DNA from: a phage
Strand: one strand, 5' to 3'
Sequence record: PZ347775.1
Length of the DNA: 64,000 nucleotides
Positions 5,103 to 60,730 of the stretch are shown one piece after another. A model generated the notes under the pieces. That model saw only the letters and a program-made list of their open reading frames with translations. It did no database searches and was not told where the DNA came from. Both the position numbers and the translations under genes were made by a program. Within the stretch, counting starts at the first letter, position 1. Every line of letters starts with the position of its first letter.

Positions 5103-5507
5103 TTAACCTTTATCAACAATAGTGTGAGTATGGACATTTACAATTTGCCACCAATCGAAACTATCGCCAAATCGTTTTGATTTATTGTCTTCAATAATTT
5201 GACGTAATTCATCTTCTGTTTCAGCATACGCAATCAAATCATCATATCCACCGCAAGGATAATAATTATCGCCTGCAAACAAAAGAAAATTTACTTTAGA
5301 TGGGTCTACATAATAATGCTCTTTAGGATATTTAGTTCCTTTCCAATCAGTTACTTCAACATAACGGTAAGAAAATCCATTTTTACTTTCAACCCAACTC
5401 CACGCTTCAAAAGGAGTATTAAAAACTCTATCAGGTATTAAATTACCTTCAAAATGAGAAGGATTTGCATAATCCCCAGCATAAACATAATATTCGTTAA
5501 TATTCAT
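5103..5507 (-). CDS. hypothetical protein (134 aa)
   Basis: Intact ORF abutting 5508-5693. Confidence 0.5.
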   Translation of the reverse strand: MNINEYYVYAGDYANPSHFEGNLIPDRVFNTPFEAWSWVESKNGFSYRYVEVTDWKGTKYPKEHYYVDPSKVNFLLFAGDNYYPCGGYDDLIAYAETEDELRQIIEDNKSKRFGDSFDWWQIVNVHTHTIVDKG

Positions 5508-5693
5508 TTATTCACCTTTAGAAATTTTATCCATAACGATAGCAATTAAACCAATTAAAAATGCTACTACAAGTGAAAATACATTTTCTGCTGTAGTTAA
5601 TAATCCGCATATAAATCCAACAAACATTGAAAAACTAAAAGCGGAAGCAGAAATTGCAATAGCAACATTTCGAATTAATTCACAACGTTTCAT
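5508..5693 (-). CDS. small hydrophobic (membrane-like) protein (61 aa)
   Basis: SD GAGGAG before ATG; protein is mostly hydrophobic. Confidence 0.5.
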   Translation of the reverse strand: MKRCELIRNVAIAISASAFSFSMFVGFICGLLTTAENVFSLVVAFLIGLIAIVMDKISKGE

Positions 5694-5722
5694 TTTATTC
5701 TCCTCAGTAGTTGATAGGGTAA

Positions 5723-5752
5723 TAATATCACTACCCCATCTAAAAGTAAACG
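5723..5752 (-). promoter_or_regulatory. T4 early-type promoter (GTTTAC, 17 bp, TATTAT)
   Basis: Minus strand hexamers with 17-bp spacer; heads the operon running through the tRNA array. Confidence 0.5.
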
Positions 5753-5761
5753 GTTTATAAA

Positions 5762-6070
5762 CTATTTTATTCCGCGTGATGCAATTGTGTTCTGCCGTTT
5801 AACACCAGTTTGTTTAAAGTCATGATTGTCGATTTGATCGGTACGAGCAACACCGAATGATGATTTAATCTTAGCTTTAGATCCTTTAGTTATAGAAATA
5901 AACATCTCGGAAGCCCCTTTCTTAAAGTCCGAGGCGATTACTTCAACGCCGTTCTTAGCAAGTGACCTCAGAATTGCCTCCGCGTACTCATCATCAAGAC
6001 TCGCCTGAGTATTAATAACGAATGTCTTTGGTGCAGTCGCTTCATTGATAAATTCTTGATATGTTTTCAT
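5762..6070 (-). CDS. ipI: internal protein I-like protein with capsid targeting sequence (102 aa from MKTYQEF)
   Basis: N-terminus MKTYQEFINEA is the classical CTS; gene sits at the T4 ipI position next to 57B; own early promoter. Confidence 0.7.
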   Translation of the reverse strand: MKTYQEFINEATAPKTFVINTQASLDDEYAEAILRSLAKNGVEVIASDFKKGASEMFISITKGSKAKIKSSFGVARTDQIDNHDFKQTGVKRQNTIASRGIK

Positions 6071-6104
6071 TTTGATTTCCATTTAGTTTTGTTTTGATAG
6101 GGTA

Positions 6105-6134
6105 ATAGTATCACAACTAAACCACCGTGTAAAC
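6105..6134 (-). promoter_or_regulatory. T4 early-type promoter (TTTACA, 17 bp, TACTAT)
   Basis: Minus strand hexamers with 17-bp spacer and TG extended -10. Confidence 0.55.
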
Positions 6135-6137
6135 AAT

Positions 6138-6410
6138 TTATTTTAAATAAATTGCATATTTTTTATAACCAGCCGTCTCGTGACGCAGACCTTTTTCATT
6201 AGCAAAGCGTTCAATATTATTAATTTGATTCTGATCAAGTTCTGAAATATCAAATACAAAAAAGTTTCGTTTATTTCCTAACGTTACATGATTCGTCAAA
6301 TCAATGTTATAAAGATGATTTATATTATCAATCATAGTCTTAACAGATTTGCTAATTTTTACTTCTTCATTAAGAGCAGATTCAACGATAAACTCTTTGA
6401 AAGTTTTCAT
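6138..6410 (-). CDS. CTS-bearing internal-protein-like protein (90 aa), unrelated in sequence to the ipI-like neighbour
   Basis: N-terminus MKTFKEFIVESA matches CTS pattern; SD AGGAAAATAAA; own early promoter. Confidence 0.6.
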   Translation of the reverse strand: MKTFKEFIVESALNEEVKISKSVKTMIDNINHLYNIDLTNHVTLGNKRNFFVFDISELDQNQINNIERFANEKGLRHETAGYKKYAIYLK

Positions 6411-6440
6411 TTTATTTTCCTAATTAATTTTGATGAGGTA

Positions 6441-6470
6441 ATAGTATCACTACCTCATCAACGTGTAAAC
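6441..6470 (-). promoter_or_regulatory. T4 early-type promoter (TTTACA, 17 bp, TACTAT) with inverted repeat around the -10
   Basis: Minus strand hexamers with 17-bp spacer; GATGAGGTA/TACCTCATC flank the -10. Confidence 0.55.
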
Positions 6471-6482
6471 AACTTTGTGAAA

Positions 6483-7179
<697 letters not shown>

Positions 7180-7180
<1 letters not shown>

Positions 7181-7893
7181 TATAGTACCTTTAGTGTATT
7201 TTTAATTTTAGAAAAAAGTTCTTCAAGAGAACCATCGTTTGTAATTACTAAATCGCCATCACGAATTGGCAATCCAGCTTCTGTAATATGAGTATCATTG
7301 GATTTTTGACCAGGACGAACTACATGAATTACTGTAGCACCCATCGCCCTAGCCGCATCCATTTCATGATCTTGACGAGTATCAGGAACGATATAATAAT
7401 CATAACCTGAGTTAAATTTATCAAGATAATCTAAAGCAAATAATTTTACCCAATACATGCGGTCGAAGTTATTAACAATCAAATCCGTACCTAGGGCTTG
7501 CATCAGACGACGGACTGACCATTGATCTTCAATATTATTTATAACGTCAGTAATCTTGTTAAATGCTACGAAATTAACTGCGTCATCAAAAACAAACACA
7601 CCTTTAATTGGGCTTTTACTATTAAGATAGCAAAATGCTTGTTCCATAATCGTAATTACTTCTAATTTAGTCAGATTTAAATTAGTTTCACGATCATAGT
7701 CAATTCCTTCAAACTCTTTACGAGTTAAACAAGGATAGCCAGTGTTTGCTGCAAATACGCCCCATGCATAAGCCAATGCATCTTTAATAGGACCAGCAAG
7801 TTGATATTTAACTGCAGAATAATTATTCATGATAAAATCTGCAGTAGTATCTTTTCCACTACGCTTTACACCACTTAAAAAGATTAGTTTCAT
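7180..7893 (-). CDS. 1: gp1 deoxynucleoside monophosphate kinase (237 aa)
   Basis: P-loop GVKRSGKDT; sequence recognised as T4 gp1. Confidence 0.95.
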
Positions 7894-52401: not shown

Positions 52402-53366
52402 TGTATTCTTTAGAGGAATTTAATAATCAAGCAATAAACGCAGATTTCCAACGTAATAATATGTTTAGCTGCGTTTTTGCGACAACTCCATCAACTAAAA
52501 GCTCTTCGTTGATAAGTTCAATTAGCAACTTTTCTTATAATAACTTGGGTCTAAATTCAGATTGGTTAGGATTGACTCAAGGCGATATTAATCAGGGAAT
52601 TACCACGCTAATTACTGCTGGCACACAAAAACTGATAAGAAAATCAGGGGTTAGTAAATATCTTATTGGTGCCATGAGTCAACGTACAGTTCAAAGTTTA
52701 TTGGGCTCATTTACAGTTGGTACATATTTAATTGACTTCTTTAACATGGCATATAACTCATCTGGATTGATGATATATTCCGTAAAAATGCCAGAGAATA
52801 GATTATCCTATGAAACTGACTGGAACTATAATTCTCCTAATATTCGTATAACTGGGAGAGAATTAGACCCTTTGGTTATTTCATTTAGGATGGATTCAGA
52901 AGCTTGTAACTATCGTGCAATGCAAGACTGGGTTAATGCTGTTCAAGACCCAGTAACTGGACTGCGTGCTTTGCCGCAAGATGTCGAGGCAGATATTCAG
53001 GTTAATCTTCATGCTCGTAATGGATTACCTCATACTGCGGTGATGTTCACCGGATGCATTCCAGTGTCAGTGAGTGCTCCTGAGTTATCATATGATGGAG
53101 ATAACCAAATAACTACATTTGATGTTACTTTTGCGTATAGAGTCATGCAGGCTGGGTCAGTTGATAGACAAGCTGCGCTTGAATGGCTTGAATCTGCTGC
53201 TATAAATGGCATTCAAAGCGTTCTCGGAAATAGTGGAGGTGTTACTGGATTATCTAATTCGCTTTCACGACTTAGTAGATTAGGAGGAACTGCGGGAAGC
53301 ATTTCAAACATTAATACTATGACGGGAATTGTCAACTCGCAAAGTAAAATATTAGGAGCAATATAA
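52401..53366 (+). CDS. 54: gp54 baseplate tail-tube initiator (321 aa)
   Basis: Length and order as T4. Confidence 0.95.
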   Translation: MYSLEEFNNQAINADFQRNNMFSCVFATTPSTKSSSLISSISNFSYNNLGLNSDWLGLTQGDINQGITTLITAGTQKLIRKSGVSKYLIGAMSQRTVQSLLGSFTVGTYLIDFFNMAYNSSGLMIYSVKMPENRLSYETDWNYNSPNIRITGRELDPLVISFRMDSEACNYRAMQDWVNAVQDPVTGLRALPQDVEADIQVNLHARNGLPHTAVMFTGCIPVSVSAPELSYDGDNQITTFDVTFAYRVMQAGSVDRQAALEWLESAAINGIQSVLGNSGGVTGLSNSLSRLSRLGGTAGSISNINTMTGIVNSQSKILGAI

Positions 53367-53370
53367 CAAT

Positions 53371-53400
53371 GGGGACCGAAAGGTCCCCATATTTTTATTT
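53371..53400. terminator. terminator hairpin (GGGGACCGAAAGGTCCCC plus T-run) between gene 54 and the convergent alt-region operon
   Basis: Perfect 7-bp GC stem and T-run. Confidence 0.55.
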
Positions 53401-53685
53401 ACGGAATGAAATAAAAGCAGCAACTGAAGCAACTAAACTGTCTTCAATATAAACTTCAATTTTTACTGGAGCTTCTGACTCAAATTTACCTGTTACTACA
53501 CCTTGGAAAATACTTTCAGTCTGTTCTGGCTTTGAAAAATTTTCAGAAGGAAAAATTCCGAACTTTTTATCTGTTCCAAAAATTTTGATAAATTCATCAT
53601 AAACTGCTTCATTAAAAGCATTATCAGCAGGAATAACGCCTTCAACTACAAGTTCTTGACCTAAAAAGCGCAAAGAAGATTTCAT
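53395..53685 (-). CDS. hypothetical small protein (96 aa) at the distal end of the alt operon
   Basis: ORF with its own early-type promoter at 53717-53746. Confidence 0.6.
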   Translation of the reverse strand: MKSSLRFLGQELVVEGVIPADNAFNEAVYDEFIKIFGTDKKFGIFPSENFSKPEQTESIFQGVVTGKFESEAPVKIEVYIEDSLVASVAAFISFRK

Positions 53686-53716: not shown

Positions 53717-53746
53717 ACTATAACACAACACGAGGGACTTGTAAAC
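53717..53746 (-). promoter_or_regulatory. T4 early-type promoter (TTTACA, 17 bp, TATAGT)
   Basis: Minus strand hexamers with 17-bp spacer, overlapping the end of the Alt-like gene. Confidence 0.5.
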
Positions 53747-55803
53747 TACATCTTGAACTTTTTAGACATTCCGTTGATGTTAACCAAAGAAGCCAAGATT
53801 TGAGAAACTTCGTTTTCCTCTTCTTTTGATTCTTCTACAAGGAATTGATTAAACCCAGCCATTGGACGAACTTCACCAGTTTCCATCAGATGATCGCCAT
53901 CATATACCGATTCTTCTAATTGTTCAGAAGGAGGAACGATTGTGCCTTCGATTAGATACTTGTTATAAGCAGTTTCTTTCATCATGTACGTGCTTACTTT
54001 ATTAATCTTCAACAAAATTCCACGCGGTAAAATAACTTCAGCTTCTGATGGAAATCCTGATAAATGACCTGGAACGATAACTTTAATTCGCTCAGCTCCT
54101 TTTATTACCATACCTACGCTAGTTTCAGCATCTTCATTAGCATATGCAGAATGACTACCCATATGCATTAAATCTTCAGCATCAACAGAACCTTCTCCTT
54201 CACCAGAAAATACTGCACTGGAATCATCTAGAGCCATATAGTTTTTACCATGCTCACCGAAGATATTTGGTTTAAGCGATGTTGATACGAAGTTCTTGAA
54301 ATAGAACATTTTATTTTCAATATTATGGCGTAAAGTTTTAAAGGTAACTTCTTGTCCACGATAAAGCGTAGTTCCTGGAGGAAGAACTGAACCTTTAGCG
54401 AATGCAGAATCCATTGTCTCGATGTGTTTAATAGCTCGTTCCATGTATTCTTCACGGGTAGAATCTGGTTTACCCAAGAGGAACGAGTTCATTTCAACAT
54501 ATGAATCTGCACAATAATCTTCAATTACATCAGACTCAGCCTGAGTCAGTCCTTTTGGAGTTACTTCGGTGCTTGCGTATTCATATGCCTGAGCAGCAGA
54601 TTCATTAATCAATTTATAAATGCCATTCATGACAAATTGAATAATAGCTACTTTTTCGTCTGGCGTGGCTTTAGAACCTTTAACTAAATCATTGATAATT
54701 TTCTTAATAACATCAAAGCTATTAGAAATATTAATGTCAGCGAGATCGCTCAAAATTTTATCGGTTTTATAATCAAAAAATTCTTTATTCTTTAAATATT
54801 CTTGAGAACCTTGATGTGTTATATCGCTCTGCAGTCTGATAGACGGATCACGTAAACGTGCATGGGCCAATGCAATATGATTTCGGAAGCTTTCTAGTTC
54901 ATAATCGTTAGATTTAAAACGAGAAGCACTTCTCATACCACCGATAGCTCCTTTGCCGAAGTTTGAACCAATCTGAATAACACCAGAGTTCATTGGTCCT
55001 TCTGCTTTATATACCGGAACTTTAGATTCAAACTCTTGATATTTCTTGGCAGCGAAGCTATCGCCTTGAAGTGAAGCATCGACAGTAGAGTATTGAGCTT
55101 GTGCTGCTAATCGACGACTAATTTTAGTTTTCTGAATAACAGCTTGATCCGTGCGCTTATCATTTTCTAAAGCAATAGAAGCGGCAACAGCAACAGCTTT
55201 AGGAACAGCATTACCTGTTTTAACGTCTACATAAACATCACCAACCTTTGATTCAACTTTTGTGAATAACTCAGTTGAAATAGGAGGTACACCTGGAATG
55301 TCTTCTAAATTGGCATTTTTACGGTAAACCATAATATATGCATACTTTTTATCATAATCCCAGATTTCCTTTAAAAGAACATATCGACCTGCTCCTTTAG
55401 TACGTACTAAACGGTCAGCAATAACTTGCATTTGACGAGCTGCGCCATTTGTTTTACTTTTTAGTACGCGGAATAGGCATGCGTCAATTTTATACTGTTT
55501 CATTGTTTGAAGAGCAGTATCAAAAACCGCATTAATAACACCAATTGGATTTCCACCCAAGTTTTTAAGTTTAACTAATGATAATTTCTCATTAACACCT
55601 ATCATTACGATATGCATCATTTTATCGCCTGGCTTAACGTTTTTATTTGTATCACCGCCAGAGGTGTATGTACAAAATCTAAATCCAGGAAGCACACTTT
55701 CTTCACCGGCTTGAATAGCAAAAATTTGAGGTATTTTATGCTTAGGATTTAAGTTAACAACCGGCGCCGAAGCGCCGTCAAATAATTCTGTAATAAGTTC
55801 CAT
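53746..55803 (-). CDS. Alt-like ADP-ribosyltransferase, paralog A (685 aa)
   Basis: N-terminus MELITELFDG; R-S-ExE motifs (LYRGQ, FVSTSL, EAEVILPRG); N-terminal third closely similar to paralog B, middle third diverged. Confidence 0.85.
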   Translation of the reverse strand: MELITELFDGASAPVVNLNPKHKIPQIFAIQAGEESVLPGFRFCTYTSGGDTNKNVKPGDKMMHIVMIGVNEKLSLVKLKNLGGNPIGVINAVFDTALQTMKQYKIDACLFRVLKSKTNGAARQMQVIADRLVRTKGAGRYVLLKEIWDYDKKYAYIMVYRKNANLEDIPGVPPISTELFTKVESKVGDVYVDVKTGNAVPKAVAVAASIALENDKRTDQAVIQKTKISRRLAAQAQYSTVDASLQGDSFAAKKYQEFESKVPVYKAEGPMNSGVIQIGSNFGKGAIGGMRSASRFKSNDYELESFRNHIALAHARLRDPSIRLQSDITHQGSQEYLKNKEFFDYKTDKILSDLADINISNSFDVIKKIINDLVKGSKATPDEKVAIIQFVMNGIYKLINESAAQAYEYASTEVTPKGLTQAESDVIEDYCADSYVEMNSFLLGKPDSTREEYMERAIKHIETMDSAFAKGSVLPPGTTLYRGQEVTFKTLRHNIENKMFYFKNFVSTSLKPNIFGEHGKNYMALDDSSAVFSGEGEGSVDAEDLMHMGSHSAYANEDAETSVGMVIKGAERIKVIVPGHLSGFPSEAEVILPRGILLKINKVSTYMMKETAYNKYLIEGTIVPPSEQLEESVYDGDHLMETGEVRPMAGFNQFLVEESKEEENEVSQILASLVNINGMSKKFKM

Positions 55804-55806
55804 GAT

Positions 55807-57903
55807 TTATCCTTGAACGAACTTGTAAGGCATGTTTGTAATATCTATGCAAGACGCAATAATTCCAAGAGATGATTCTACTTTTTGTTTAACATTTGAT
55901 GAAACAAATGATGCAAAGTCAACTCTGTCTTCTATTTCAATATCACCTGTCATTGCAACTACTTCACCAGTTTCCATTAGACGGTCACCGTCATAAATGA
56001 CTGATTCGGTGAGTTCTTCCGTAGTCATAACTTCAGCTTGAATGAGTTTTGTATTATTAGATGTTGTTCCGTCGTTATTAGAAGCATCAGTTATTTTATT
56101 AACTTTGACCATCAATCCGCGTGGTAGAATAACTTCAGCTTCTGTTGCTATTCCGAGACTTCCTGGATATACAACATTAACTTTATGAGCTCCATCAATT
56201 GCCCATCCTATTTGAACTTTAACGTATTCAGGATTTTCTTTATACGCTCTTATTTCGTTTGGATTAATAGTTATTCCTTCTTCATTTTTATCAACTGTTA
56301 ATTCATTACGAGCTTCTGGTTCTAAAAGACCAATACCAGCATGTGTAATTCCAAAACGTCCAAAAATGATAGGAGTTAAAGAAGTAGATACAAAATTTCT
56401 GAAATAGAACACTTTATTTTTAACTAGTGCTTCGTATATAGGAGCAGTCATACTTTGTGCACGATAAACTGTAATGCCTTCCGGTATACGGTCACCATTT
56501 TCAAAAGCTGAATCTAAGTTATTTATAGCAGATTCAATTTCTTTTTCACTCATTACATCATATCGTTCTGGATTGTAGCGTCCTAAAAGAAGATTATTGA
56601 TGTCAGTATATCCTGAACCACAATACTCTCTAATGCCGCGCTTTTGTGATGGAGTATATTTAGAACCATCACGGGCAATAGTAATATCAATCATTGGACC
56701 TGCACCAATTCCAGAAAAGCTATAAATCATTCGTTTGAGGAATTTAGTTTTTGCTGCGTTCCAGGAATTTTTAGTTATTTCTTCCCAGACTTCATCTGGC
56801 TGTCCTTTACGGGTTTTATTATGTTTATCAAGCCAAGTATCTTTATATTCTTCAAAGAATTTATTAATAGCTGCTGCATACTTCTCTAAACATTTTATTG
56901 AAGTAGTTGGTTCATTTTTGATCGCATTAAGAATTACATCTTTAATTTTTTCAGAAACTTCATTAACCTCACTTTTTGAAAAGAATTTATAATCATAGTG
57001 AAGTTCATCTGCAGTTCCTTCGGCAATAATTTTTGCTGCCTTAGTTTTAGAAGCCAATGAATTAATTCCAAGTTTCATTTCTTCTGCTTCGGGAATTAAA
57101 GGAGCGGTAGCAGGTTTATTGAAATTAGCTGCGGTAGATTCATACTTCTGGAATAATTCACTTTCAAATCTAGAAGATTCCAATGACTGACTTTGTGCAA
57201 TTGCTCTACGGGAAATTTTAACTTTAACGATTACAGCTTGGTCAGAACGTTTATCATTTTCTTGCGCAATAGATGCAGCAATTGCCTCATTTTTAGTTAC
57301 TTGAGCTCCAGTATCTTTATTGATATAAACATCACCGACCTTCGATTCAACTTTAGTAAAGAGCTCGGTGCTAATTTCCGGAACTCCTGGAATGTCTTCT
57401 AGTGATACATTTTTGCGATGTATAAGAATATATGCATACTTTTTATCGTAATCCCAGAGTTCCTTAAGAAGGACGTATCTGCCACCCGAACGACTACGGA
57501 TAAGTCTATCAGCAATAACTTGAATTTGTCGAGCTTGACCAGCAGTTTTAGACTTAAGAATACGGAGCATACAGGCATCAATTTTATACTGACGCATCGT
57601 CTGCATTGCAACAGTAAAAACTGAATTGATGTAATTAATTGGGCTTGGACCGAGACCTTTCAATTTAGCAATTGAACCTTTAGCAGTTAATGTAAAAGGA
57701 ACAATATGCATCATTTTATCGCCCATTTTTAAATCGCGATTAGTATCACCTCCAGATGTATAGGTACATAAACGAAAGCCTGGTTGTTCAATTGCGTCAT
57801 CAACATGAACTGAAAAAATTTGCGGTATTTTCTTCTTTGGATTTAAGTTTGTAATCGGAAGAGTAGTATCTTCGTCAAATAATTCTGTAATAAGTTCCAT
57901 CAT
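55807..57903 (-). CDS. alt: Alt ADP-ribosyltransferase, paralog B (698 aa), the copy nearest gene 30
   Basis: N-terminus M-MELITELFDED; R-S-ExE motifs (VYRAQ, FVSTSL, EAEVILPRG); late promoter and SD upstream. Confidence 0.9.
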   Translation of the reverse strand: MMELITELFDEDTTLPITNLNPKKKIPQIFSVHVDDAIEQPGFRLCTYTSGGDTNRDLKMGDKMMHIVPFTLTAKGSIAKLKGLGPSPINYINSVFTVAMQTMRQYKIDACMLRILKSKTAGQARQIQVIADRLIRSRSGGRYVLLKELWDYDKKYAYILIHRKNVSLEDIPGVPEISTELFTKVESKVGDVYINKDTGAQVTKNEAIAASIAQENDKRSDQAVIVKVKISRRAIAQSQSLESSRFESELFQKYESTAANFNKPATAPLIPEAEEMKLGINSLASKTKAAKIIAEGTADELHYDYKFFSKSEVNEVSEKIKDVILNAIKNEPTTSIKCLEKYAAAINKFFEEYKDTWLDKHNKTRKGQPDEVWEEITKNSWNAAKTKFLKRMIYSFSGIGAGPMIDITIARDGSKYTPSQKRGIREYCGSGYTDINNLLLGRYNPERYDVMSEKEIESAINNLDSAFENGDRIPEGITVYRAQSMTAPIYEALVKNKVFYFRNFVSTSLTPIIFGRFGITHAGIGLLEPEARNELTVDKNEEGITINPNEIRAYKENPEYVKVQIGWAIDGAHKVNVVYPGSLGIATEAEVILPRGLMVKVNKITDASNNDGTTSNNTKLIQAEVMTTEELTESVIYDGDRLMETGEVVAMTGDIEIEDRVDFASFVSSNVKQKVESSLGIIASCIDITNMPYKFVQG

Positions 57904-57923: not shown

Positions 57924-57931
57924 TATTTATA
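57924..57931 (-). promoter_or_regulatory. T4 late promoter TATAAATA upstream of alt
   Basis: Exact motif on minus strand about 20 nt upstream of the alt start. Confidence 0.5.
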
Positions 57932-57937
57932 AAATTA

Positions 57938-57955
57938 AAGGCCCGAAGGCCTTTA
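57938..57955 (-). terminator. stem-loop AAAGGCCCGAAGGCCTTT between the 62-aa ORF and alt
   Basis: Perfect hairpin immediately upstream of the late promoter. Confidence 0.4.
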
Positions 57956-58141
57956 ATAATCTAATGGTAAGAGAGTACGGTATATTTCAAACTTCGGACC
58001 TTTTTCATAGGCATCAAATGTTTCTGTAAATTTATTATAAGCATATGCATCTACAAATTCGAGAATGACTTGTGATACAGAAGTAGAAACATCTCCACCT
58101 TCTTTTTGAGCAATGACAATTGTTTCTAAGTAAGCTTTCAT
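57953..58141 (-). CDS. hypothetical small protein (62 aa) between DNA ligase and alt
   Basis: ORF overlapping the ligase stop by 4 nt (translational coupling). Confidence 0.5.
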   Translation of the reverse strand: MKAYLETIVIAQKEGGDVSTSVSQVILEFVDAYAYNKFTETFDAYEKGPKFEIYRTLLPLDY

Positions 58142-59601
58142 AGACCAGTTACCTCATGAAAATCACCAAATACATCCTCGAATGTATTAGCTTTAGTTTT
58201 ATCTTCACGTAAACGAATCGCAATCGGAAGAAATAATTTAACGTAATCAGTGCGGCCGTCAGATTTTAACCAACCATTGCATTCGCACTCTAGAATTTTT
58301 CCAATATAATAATTTTGGTTTTCCATAATGCGAGTACGGTCAAGTTCATGTGATTTTACACCGGCTTTATCTTTTAAGCCTGAACCAGCATTCACTTTAA
58401 TTTTTCCACACTCTGATTCAAGAATAAATCCACCGGCTTTAGTAGGGTCTTTACGGTGAGGATAAATTCCTACAATTTTTAAATCAACATCAATTACTTC
58501 TTTAAATTTATAGAGATTTTTTGAACGAGCATTTTCCCACAATCCATCGGTATTTTTGAGAATAATACCTTCAAGACCTTGGTCAATATATTTTTTATAA
58601 ATTACCTTAGCTTCATCTAGGTTATTTACTACCTGGTTTTCAATTAAAATTACTTTATCATATCCTGATGTCATTTGTTCTAGTTTAGAAAAACGTACAT
58701 CATATTTCAAACGAAATGCAGGAAGACCGTATATTTCTACCAACGGGACATAATCCCAGACCTGAAACTTCATGCATTGAGCTTCTTTTTCAGAAATGGT
58801 TCCCTTTAAAGATTTATTGGCGATTCCATTAGAAGTAGTACGAGATTCCGCTACTTCGGCGAATTCTTTAGCTTTACTAATTTCAGGATAAGCATCAAAA
58901 AGAAAATCTAGGCCTTCTGGTTCCTTTTTAACTTGCTCATGGTATACCAATTCGCCATCAATTAACACACCTTCTGGATGAATCTGGCGGGCTTCAGCAG
59001 TCATTTTGATTAACTCTTCCTTAAGAAGATCTAATCCTAGATATTCATTACCAGCTCGTGATAAAAGACGAACATCATCTAATTCATCGCCTCGGACTTC
59101 AGCAAAACACCGAGCTCCATCTGCTTTTAACTGCGCAAAGGCTGGAAACTTGATATTCTTATTAATGCCCTTTTCATCATAAGAACTTGCCAGCATTTGA
59201 GGTTGTTCAGGAATTAAACCTGGCCAAACTTTATTTGCAATAGATACTGAAGCACCGCATTCAAGGTCTCGCATCATAACTCGACGCAAAACTTCAACAT
59301 CATCCTTTTTACCATCAGTGATATATCCAGTTAATTCCTCAATTGCAGCATTTCCAGTCAATTTCCGAGTAGCTAACGTGAATTCAATGAAGTCGAGCAT
59401 ATCTGTAAGAGTCAACATTCCAAAACTCTGGGTAGCAATACCAGGTTTAGGCCATTTCTTGATATAATACTGTAACCCACGAGAATAAGTTAGACGATAT
59501 ACTCGTTTAAGCAATTCATTATCTTTATTCTTTTCAAGAATTGCTTGCTTCTGCTTAGTTGATCCAATAGATGCTATTTCATTCAGAATTTTAAGAATCA
59601 T
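58138..59601 (-). CDS. 30: gp30 ATP-dependent DNA ligase (487 aa)
   Basis: Adenylation lysine motif in FAQLKADGARC; sequence recognised as T4 DNA ligase. Confidence 0.97.
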   Translation of the reverse strand: MILKILNEIASIGSTKQKQAILEKNKDNELLKRVYRLTYSRGLQYYIKKWPKPGIATQSFGMLTLTDMLDFIEFTLATRKLTGNAAIEELTGYITDGKKDDVEVLRRVMMRDLECGASVSIANKVWPGLIPEQPQMLASSYDEKGINKNIKFPAFAQLKADGARCFAEVRGDELDDVRLLSRAGNEYLGLDLLKEELIKMTAEARQIHPEGVLIDGELVYHEQVKKEPEGLDFLFDAYPEISKAKEFAEVAESRTTSNGIANKSLKGTISEKEAQCMKFQVWDYVPLVEIYGLPAFRLKYDVRFSKLEQMTSGYDKVILIENQVVNNLDEAKVIYKKYIDQGLEGIILKNTDGLWENARSKNLYKFKEVIDVDLKIVGIYPHRKDPTKAGGFILESECGKIKVNAGSGLKDKAGVKSHELDRTRIMENQNYYIGKILECECNGWLKSDGRTDYVKLFLPIAIRLREDKTKANTFEDVFGDFHEVTGL

Positions 59602-59867
59602 TGTTCATCCTTCAGAGTTTGATTTACAGCTCTATTATAAATCAATTCATCATTAAGCTCAGTCAAAGACTTATGATATGTAGTTCTAACTTTATTTCCT
59701 TGCATCCAGTGCTTGACGTAAATGAAACCTTGCTCTACACATTTTTTAAAAATTCGTTCGTCTTTTTGAGCTCGGAATTCTGGATTGCATCTAAAAAATT
59801 GATTTACGTGACCGTAATCACGCGTAGTATTACCTTCATTTTCATAAATAGTGTGAACGACAAACAT
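59598..59867 (-). CDS. hypothetical protein (89 aa), 30.1 position
   Basis: ORF overlapping the gene 30 start. Confidence 0.6.
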   Translation of the reverse strand: MFVVHTIYENEGNTTRDYGHVNQFFRCNPEFRAQKDERIFKKCVEQGFIYVKHWMQGNKVRTTYHKSLTELNDELIYNRAVNQTLKDEQ

Positions 59868-60730
59868 TAGAATGCTCCTTGGAAAATATTATCACCACTA
59901 GTAAATCTATTAAAATACCCTGCATCACCAGGCTTAGTATAACTCCACGTATGGAATGGATTCATATGATACGGGTGTGTATAATATGGATTATATGGAT
60001 GTGTATAATATGGATTATACGGATTAAATCCAGGAGTTCTCCAGGTAGTGTTCCAACGAAAAGAATCGTTTTTAACCATCTTCTCAATTACATCTTTTAT
60101 AGCTTTTTCACTATCAAAACTTTCTTTATTTTCCTTCGGTGAAAAAAGTTTATTTTCTACATCATTCCATGTATAAACTCGCTGAGCAGTTTTTGGAATA
60201 TTGTCACGCTCTCCTCGCGCCATCCAATAAACAGGAACATTTAATATTTCATTCGCATGATCGCAATGGTGAGCAAGATCGTCAATATAACAAATTACGT
60301 TATATTTCTCTTTTGCCTTTTTGAATAACTCTTCTTTTGAAGAATCATGACCACACATCATTACTTCTGAGAAGGCACCAGGAAAAAGAGCATTCAAATT
60401 AAATTGACGATTCAACAGAGCGTCAATAGAATCACCTAATGCTGTAACAGCTACAAAATTATAATCTTCTTTTAATTTGTTAATTACACACAGTGCATCT
60501 TTATATGGAGACAAATAACGAATAAAATCTGAACGATTGTATTTTTCAATTAACTTGACGCCAAGTTCTTCATCACAATTAAAGAGTTTACCCGGAGAAA
60601 TAAATTTCTCATCTTGGATCATTTTTAAAATATGTTCTAACGGAAGATTATATTTCTGAGCAAAATAAGGAAGGCCTGATTGCCAGCTTAAACATACTCC
60701 ATCAATATCAGTCAAAATAGTAGGCTTCAT
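59867..60730 (-). CDS. HAD-superfamily-like hydrolase (287 aa) with repeated C-terminal octapeptide, 30.2 position
   Basis: HAD motif I ILTDIDGV and DD motif IDDLAHH; C-terminal YNPYYTHP x2. Confidence 0.6.
   Translation of the reverse strand: MKPTILTDIDGVCLSWQSGLPYFAQKYNLPLEHILKMIQDEKFISPGKLFNCDEELGVKLIEKYNRSDFIRYLSPYKDALCVINKLKEDYNFVAVTALGDSIDALLNRQFNLNALFPGAFSEVMMCGHDSSKEELFKKAKEKYNVICYIDDLAHHCDHANEILNVPVYWMARGERDNIPKTAQRVYTWNDVENKLFSPKENKESFDSEKAIKDVIEKMVKNDSFRWNTTWRTPGFNPYNPYYTHPYNPYYTHPYHMNPFHTWSYTKPGDAGYFNRFTSGDNIFQGAF
59977..60024. repeat. 2 x 24-bp direct tandem repeat (23/24 identical) within the HAD-like gene
   Basis: GTGTATAATATGGATTATATGGAT / GTGTATAATATGGATTATACGGAT. Confidence 0.8.

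Follow-up and report, generated by a model that had tools for sequence, protein, structure and literature searches.

Why does a T4-like phage carry two Alt-type genes side by side, and what would the second one do? We addressed this question in a 64,000-nucleotide (nt) stretch of phage DNA (sequence record PZ347775.1; the whole stretch is called the window below), which is a Tequatrovirus (T4-like) genome segment. Its plus-strand genes 29, 48 and 54 end at position 53366, and the minus strand carries, in the order of transcription, DNA ligase, alt.1, an open reading frame (ORF) of 698 amino acids (aa), an ORF of 685 aa and alt.-3. The two ORFs are referred to here as copy 1 and copy 2. Judged from their sequences, both are Alt-type ADP-ribosyltransferase (ART) genes. 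The pair probably represents an ancestral two-gene alt locus, whose products would both be packaged in the phage head and injected as arginine ADP-ribosyltransferases, most likely acting on different host targets.

Two intact genes of the Alt family

Copy 1 (minus strand, 55807-57900, 697 aa when counted from the second ATG; with the first ATG the ORF reaches 57903 and has 698 aa) is alt in its T2/T6-type allele, and copy 2 (minus strand, 53746-55803, 685 aa) is a full-length alt paralog. Both ORFs are intact and the gap between them is 3 nt (55804-55806). The ORF list confirms the strand, lengths and spacing given in the sequence-only reading, an earlier note that a model made from the DNA letters. 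According to that reading both proteins start with MELITELFD. This is correct for copy 2, but the 698-aa copy 1 ORF opens with two ATGs and starts with MMELITELFD. A Shine-Dalgarno sequence, GAGG, lies 2 nt before the first of these ATGs and 5 nt before the second, and the second is the annotated start in T4, T2, T6 and ime09. The copy 1 product is therefore likely a 697-aa protein that starts with MELITELFD at 57900.

Both genes retain the intact R-S-ExE signature that had been proposed, and all the motifs quoted for it were found. Copy 1 has VYRAQ with R480 (56461-56463), STS at residues 505-507 (56380-56388) and EAE at residues 587-589 (56134-56142). Copy 2 has LYRGQ with R482 (54358-54360), STS at residues 507-509 (54277-54285) and EAE at residues 587-589 (54037-54045), all on the minus strand. 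In an alignment of 25 Alt-family proteins, the copy 2 residues R482, S507, S509, E587 and E589, that is, the catalytic arginine, both serines of STS and both glutamates of ExE, are invariant. Mutation of the second glutamate of ExE inactivates T4 Alt (PMC11404850). The published mutation E577A corresponds to E576 of the 682-aa T4 RefSeq Alt; this offset vanishes when counting from an upstream ATG, which gives the 683-aa form used in several database entries (T4 Alt lies at 5455-7503 of locus L001).

The domain PF03496 (ADPrib_exo_Tox) scores above the Pfam threshold in copy 1 (E = 1.7e-37) and in copy 2 (E = 2.8e-20). Together with the catalytic residues present in both, this bears out the assignment of the two genes as intact Alt-type ADP-ribosyltransferases. 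The family phrog_802 matches both proteins over their full length (copy 1 residues 1-696, E = 2.9e-272; copy 2 residues 1-685, E = 1.8e-255). PF26846 (N-terminal Tevenvirinae_ADPRT) is precomputed for a 99%-identical cluster, P0001, and for the chimeras described below; the N-terminal domain alone gave no match against the local Pfam copy, and no NCBIfam family was matched. By domain, profile, gp21 sites and locus, both copies belong to the Tevenvirinae Alt family (phrog_802; PF26846 + PF03496).

The two proteins share one architecture, which consists of a 6-residue MELITE propeptide (57883-57900 in copy 1 and 55786-55803 in copy 2, minus strand), an N-terminal alpha/beta domain (residues ~15-225), a helical region, a catalytic domain and a tail. 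The catalytic domain is a C3/VIP2-type ADP-ribosyltransferase with R-S-ExE, and the C-terminal tail starts at an L-x-E site. T4 Alt (gpAlt, NP_049811; NAD+--arginine ADP-ribosyltransferase) has the same locus, the same late promoter and the same five-part architecture, with ITE-6, an L-x-E site near residue 620-632 and R-S-ExE as in both copies. Copy 1 is an allele of T4 Alt, whereas copy 2 is its paralog, and the identity of copy 2 to T4 Alt is 41% over the whole protein but falls to 35% in the ART domain and 10% in the helical region.

A pairwise alignment of copy 1 and copy 2 by BLASTP gave 41% identity over 718 columns (E = 9e-158), a similarity far beyond chance. The identity is unevenly distributed. 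It is 68% over the N-terminal 240 residues and 18% over residues 241-420, the helical region, so both the likeness of the N-terminal parts, with a MELITE gp21 site in each, and the strong divergence of the central parts were described correctly at the outset. The ART domains are 35% and the C-terminal tails 46% identical. At the DNA level the copies share no 31-mers, and their longest common run is 27 nt. A recent duplication or gene conversion was rejected, because even the N-terminal DNA is only 59-77% identical and the shared run is so short.

A phmmer search with residues 241-420 against 1.84 billion cluster representatives gave no matches. The likely cause is that natural chimeras join both paralogs in one 50% cluster with an Alt-type representative, and the result means at most that no relative of the helical region was detected outside the Alt family. 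The central 215-aa part of copy 2 scored against nothing in a large protein collection, which is uninformative, as full-length orthologs are present there.

The AlphaFold model of copy 2 (mean pLDDT 74) contains an alpha/beta domain (residues 15-225), a linker, a helical region (250-470), a beta-rich catalytic core (480-622) and then a disordered tail. The model is closest in structure to Vis, C3, Certhrax, CDTa and VIP2 (Foldseek probability 1.0, target-normalised TM ~0.6). A sequence search of the Protein Data Bank (PDB) found nothing for copy 2, only weak CdtA and iota toxin matches for copy 1, and nothing for a profile of the N-terminal domain. The bacterial C3, VIP2, iota, CDTa, Vis and Certhrax toxins resemble the Alt copies in catalytic fold and motif. 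However, their sequence identity to the copies is 13-21%, and C3/VIP2-type toxins are delivered by secretion or through a binary pore, whereas the Alt copies would be delivered by the phage capsid.

These structural relatives bear on the substrate of copy 2. By analogy, the enzyme might act on something other than protein arginine with plain NAD+, for example by RNAylation with NAD-capped RNA, or on a nucleic acid or a small molecule. The Vis toxin, its best structural match, was crystallised with agmatine, and a preprint reports that ModB, which also belongs to the Alt/VIP2 clade, links proteins to RNA chains (bioRxiv 10.1101/2021.06.04.446905). However, copy 2 has an ExE motif and a C3/VIP2-like fold, both characteristic of protein-arginine transferases, and no hint of a nucleic-acid substrate is present in the sequence. 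We consider such an activity extremely improbable, and an arginine-directed enzyme is the reading that we follow here.

The N-terminal domain common to all Alt proteins has a confident model of its own (pLDDT 84). Its structural neighbours are mostly GNAT acetyltransferases, with weak scores and without sequence support, and an invariant K-x-x-G-x-A/G stands at the place of the GNAT acetyl-CoA motif, which in GNAT enzymes reads Q/R-x-x-G-x-G/A and binds the pyrophosphate of acetyl-CoA. From the model one can imagine that this domain is a GNAT-like module that binds a ligand or has a catalytic function of its own, but this is speculative and is a lead rather than a finding.

Copy 2 in T4 and in other phages

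Copy 2 is the full-length form of a gene that is reduced in T4 to alt.-1 and alt.-2. Against copy 2, T4 alt.-1 matches residues 1-56 with 95% identity and alt.-2 matches residues 62-116 with 98%; against copy 1 the two reach 58-62%. The PHROG families of T4 alt.-1 and alt.-2 match copy 2 with E = 1e-38 to 1e-40 and copy 1 with E = 1e-19 to 1e-21. The T4 DNA follows copy 2 almost exactly up to nt 345, and near-identity resumes 8 nt ahead of the stop codon and continues from there. Two deletions set it apart from copy 2, one of 1 bp and one of 1699 bp, the latter between 9-bp direct repeats, CTAAAAAGT. In the window, the first repeat, at the left edge of the T4 deletion, lies at 55456-55464 (minus strand; copy 2 nt 340-348), and the second, at the right edge, lies at 53757-53765 (minus strand; copy 2 nt 2039-2047). 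The small deletion falls in a run of five A (55640-55644, minus strand), which is A4 in T4; the resulting frameshift divides the T4 remnant into alt.-1 and alt.-2. The T4 record carries a note of an old duplication of the first part of alt. Sequence comparison corrects this reading and points to alt.-1/alt.-2 as the deletion remnant of a complete paralog, not a partial duplication of alt. The T4 remnant, like the T6 'apparent insertion in alt.-2', is the same gene at the same position as copy 2, and it is dead in T4.

Comparison with the alt-region proteins of T4, T2 and T6 matched copy 2 to ORFs that are already annotated. Copy 2 is 98.0% identical to a 685-aa ORF at the same place in T2, which is annotated "hypothetical protein; alt.-1", and 98.1% identical to the T6 ORF, annotated "apparent insertion in alt.-2; also similar to alt". 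The ime09 ORF is named alt.-2, "Alt-like RNA polymerase ADP-ribosyltransferase", a product name that is frequent among the records, and in many other records copy 2 is merely a 'hypothetical protein'. Full-length copy 2 is also present in vB_SsoM_113, SF2-1, RB3, RB6, RB18 and many other phages. Of 500 records that match the gene in DNA sequence, 402 cover at least 80% of it; at the protein level, the part specific to copy 2 (middle plus catalytic part) was found in 330 records with an identity of at least 95%.

In Dhakavirus JS10, too, this tandem pair is found between alt.1 and alt.-3, and there it has been annotated as altA/altB since 2008. By identity, JS10 altA belongs with copy 1 (67%), and altB belongs with copy 2 (48%, compared with 32% to copy 1). 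The correspondence of the two pairs shows that the duplication predates the split between Tequatrovirus and Dhakavirus. JS10 altB differs in having 707 aa and an acidic insertion before the ExE region, and the JS10 pair is far more diverged than that of the window. The gene order at the locus (gene 30/alt.1 ... alt.-3/gene 54) is the same in the window, T4, T2, T6 and JS10. T4 alt.-1/alt.-2, together with ORFs of RB49 and 44RR, had been listed as paralogous alt duplications, one of them full-length (Nolan et al. 2006, PMC1524935).

The novelty that the sequence-only reading implied for the second copy is therefore not upheld, since the gene is a standard ORF of T2, T6, ime09, RB3, RB6, RB18 and about 400 records, and is altB in JS10. 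As a sequence feature the gene pair is already known and would not surprise a T4 specialist. That reading had allowed for both copies being standard, already characterised ORFs of reference T-even genomes. Standard ORFs they both are, but the second copy is not characterised: no study of this paralog, either by biochemistry or by virion proteomics, was found in the searchable literature. T4, the model phage, is without the full gene, which is probably the reason for the missing studies.

Copy 2 is under strong purifying selection. In comparisons with T2, vB_SsoM_113, SF2-1 and ime09, the dN/dS of copy 2 lies in the range 0.035-0.069 and that of copy 1 in the range 0.021-0.046. The ratio is low in every region, including the catalytic domain.

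The locus has also undergone gene loss and gene fusion. Salmonella phage SG1 has the same remnant as T4, yet a T2-type alt. In NIC06P2 (OZ035760; 4501-6567 of locus L008) the sole Alt gene encodes 688 aa and consists of a copy 1 body with a copy 2 3' end; its sequence indicates a loss of copy 2 by deletion or recombination across the conserved C-terminal tails, an independent second route. In several metagenome proteins an N-terminus of the copy 1 type is joined to copy 2, the switch lying near residue 54, 110, 194 or 226. Two long metagenome contigs (L010 and L011, 5001-7061) carry, between alt.1 and alt.-3, a chimera of this kind and no other Alt gene. The isolate ECML-134 (JX128259; 2742-4802 of locus L013) likewise has a sole Alt gene, which follows copy 1 up to about residue 157 and copy 2 thereafter, and its junction coincides with a 21-nt stretch identical in both copies. 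An assembly artefact behind the single-gene chimeric contigs was considered unlikely, because the copies share no 31-mers and the isolate ECML-134 has the same structure. The ECML-134 and contig chimeras show that the copy 2 catalytic module can be the only one of a phage. Either catalytic module can be lost, and at least one is kept in every genome examined. The conserved ends of the Alt genes permit catalytic modules to be swapped or fused by recombination.

Expression, delivery and targets

The signals around the pair suggest that both genes would be transcribed late, as one unit, from TATAAATA upstream of alt. A G+C-rich hairpin (AAAGGCCTTCGGGCCTTT, then AATTTT) was read from the sequence over the alt.1 stop codon (57937-57954, minus strand) and is a likely terminator upstream of alt; a simple terminator scan missed it because of its short T-run. 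A conserved terminator upstream of alt has been reported in T4-like genomes (PMC1524935). An exact match to the T4-type late promoter, TATAAATA, follows at 57924-57931 (minus strand), about 21 nt upstream of the alt start, and this promoter is found in the same context in T4, T2, T6, ime09, SG1, NIC06P2 and metagenome contigs. For copy 2, a Shine-Dalgarno sequence, AAGGA (55810-55814, minus strand; GTTCAAGGATAAATCATGG), lies in the last copy 1 codons, 6 nt before the copy 2 ATG. A sequence scan found no terminator-like site between the copies on the minus strand and no copy 2 promoter directly upstream.

A second exact TATAAATA is located within copy 1 at 56520-56527 (minus strand; codons S-A-I-N-N), about 720 nt upstream of copy 2, and is conserved in T2, T6, ime09, vB_SsoM_113 and NIC06P2. 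This match may have arisen by chance from the coding sequence, or it may serve copy 2 as an additional late promoter.

In T4, the head core contains about 40 copies of Alt (PMC9958956). The gp21 protease cuts T4 Alt at ITE-6 and LTE-619 to give a 68.2-kDa product, as found by mass spectrometry (PMC5694885). The mass calculated for T4 Alt residues 7-619 is 68.2 kDa, which validates our mapping of the gp21 sites. In the alignment of 25 proteins, Glu6 and the glutamate aligned with T4 E619 are invariant in the family; in copy 2 they are E6 and E631. Copy 1 has ITE-6 and LTE-632 (56005-56013, minus strand), with a predicted mature mass of 70.1 kDa, and copy 2 has ITE-6 and LEE-631 (53911-53919, minus strand), with a predicted mass of 69.1 kDa. 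Both proteins would enter the prohead core, where gp21 would trim both ends to yield products of about 70.1 and 69.1 kDa, and both would be injected together with the phage DNA. Each enzyme would then use NAD+ to mono-ADP-ribosylate arginines of host proteins.

The repeated loss of copy 2 and its many 'hypothetical protein' annotations would also agree with a protein that is not an injected enzyme, either one that is mainly structural or core-associated and whose ART domain is inactive, or one that is poorly expressed and drifting to loss. However, a drifting or inactive protein would not be expected to keep all catalytic residues invariant, both gp21 sites and a low dN/dS that includes the ART domain, nor to provide the catalytic part of the only Alt gene of ECML-134. 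We regard this explanation as very unlikely. The proposal that copy 2 would be packaged, injected and directed at separate targets gains strength from its conserved C-terminal gp21 site, from its low dN/dS and from the chimera of ECML-134.

The proposal of different target sets draws on the low identity of the helical regions (18%) and catalytic domains (35%), on the age of the pair, and on the equal purifying selection on both genes. The main alternative is that copy 2 is a redundant back-up or dosage copy, packaged and active on the same main targets as Alt, e.g., the alpha subunit of RNA polymerase. Both copies have the same ExE motif of the arginine type and the same overall architecture, and natural losses affect either of them, as partial redundancy would permit: T4, SG1 and NIC06P2 have lost copy 2, and ECML-134 has lost the catalytic part of copy 1. 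The divergence of the ART domain and the helical region argues against shared targets. Furthermore, the separation of the two lineages is older than the Tequatrovirus/Dhakavirus split, purifying selection is equally strong on both copies, and plain redundancy is rarely so long-lived. Redundancy is therefore unlikely in our view, and enzymes with different targets remain the preferred explanation of the pair.

Several points weigh against that explanation. Copy 2 is dispensable: the T4 lineage and SG1 share the deletion by which it was lost, and NIC06P2 lost it in a different way. The confidence of the AlphaFold model is low in the STS-ExE loop (residues 514-519) and in the tail, so the model cannot inform on substrate-binding surfaces. 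For copy 2, we infer production, packaging, cleavage, injection and activity from sequence, and divergence in sequence is what suggests the different targets.

A more far-reaching proposal can be made only tentatively, although we think it has a substantial chance of being right. The 685-aa paralog may be a fourth T-even ADP-ribosyltransferase, capsid-borne and injected, with targets unlike those of Alt that could include defence or toxin-antitoxin proteins, and it may have been overlooked because T4 deleted the gene. The pair amounts to one Alt-type enzyme more than in T4, as had been claimed, since T4 keeps copy 2 only as the alt.-1/alt.-2 fragments. The statement that T4 has three ADP-ribosyltransferases is thus a statement about T4 and is not general for T-even phages: T2, T6 and about four of every five Tequatroviruses sequenced have a gene for a second full-length enzyme of the Alt type, one that is seemingly built for delivery with the DNA. 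If copy 2 does have its own targets, it would be an unexplored effector of host takeover or counter-defence in the first minute of infection, in phages that are widely used for therapy and biocontrol.

Two known systems help to place the pair. ModA and ModB are about 200 aa long, are made early after infection and are not known to be packaged or injected. Neither is known to have the N-terminal domain or gp21 sites, and both are encoded elsewhere in the genome. The Alt copies share a clade with these T4 enzymes, namely the Alt/VIP2 R-S-E ADP-ribosyltransferases (PMC5512222). Head-core cargo that includes IPI and IPII is non-essential, trimmed by gp21, injected with the DNA and variable among related phages, as is proposed for the Alt pair. 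IPI and IPII counter host restriction systems (PMC12373910, PMC9026906). However, cargo of this type is small and basic, has no enzymatic domains and is unrelated in sequence to the Alt copies.

The alt allele and the neighbouring genes

Copy 1 is 98.4% identical to T2 Alt, 99.0% to T6 Alt and 70% to T4 Alt, and the 98-99% identities show that the window holds the T2/T6-type alt allele. By region, the identity between copy 1 and T4 Alt is 100% over the N-terminal 240 residues, 33% in the middle, 64% in the catalytic domain and 94% in the tail. The T2/T6-type allele reaches at least 80% query coverage in 317 of 539 matching phage records; records that match copy 1 at both ends only represent the T4-type allele. 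The gene alt thus occurs as two very different alleles, of the T2/T6 type and the T4 type, with ends that are 94-100% identical. From the sequences, the difference looks like a cassette exchange between conserved flanks.

Upstream of the pair on the minus strand lie DNA ligase (58138-59601) and alt.1 (57953-58141). A 24-nt tandem repeat of 2.3 copies is present at 59969-60024 in the gene 30.2 homolog (59867-60730), where it duplicates the peptide NPYYTHPY; this ORF has 287 aa here and 278 aa in T4.

Downstream, alt.-3 (53395-53685, minus strand, 96 aa, DUF5498; PF17602 E = 1.4e-64 and T4 annotation) adjoins the Alt pair but is not part of it. A putative early-type promoter for alt.-3 (TTTACA, 17 nt, TG-TATAGT; 53717-53745, minus strand), recognised as a consensus match only, lies right after the copy 2 stop codon. 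A bidirectional terminator hairpin between alt.-3 and gene 54 (53369-53390) marks the end of the minus-strand transcription unit. T4 Alt.-3 mutants with a C-terminal extension escape the CmdTAC defence system (PMC11618068); the alt.-3 of the window has the normal length of 96 aa.

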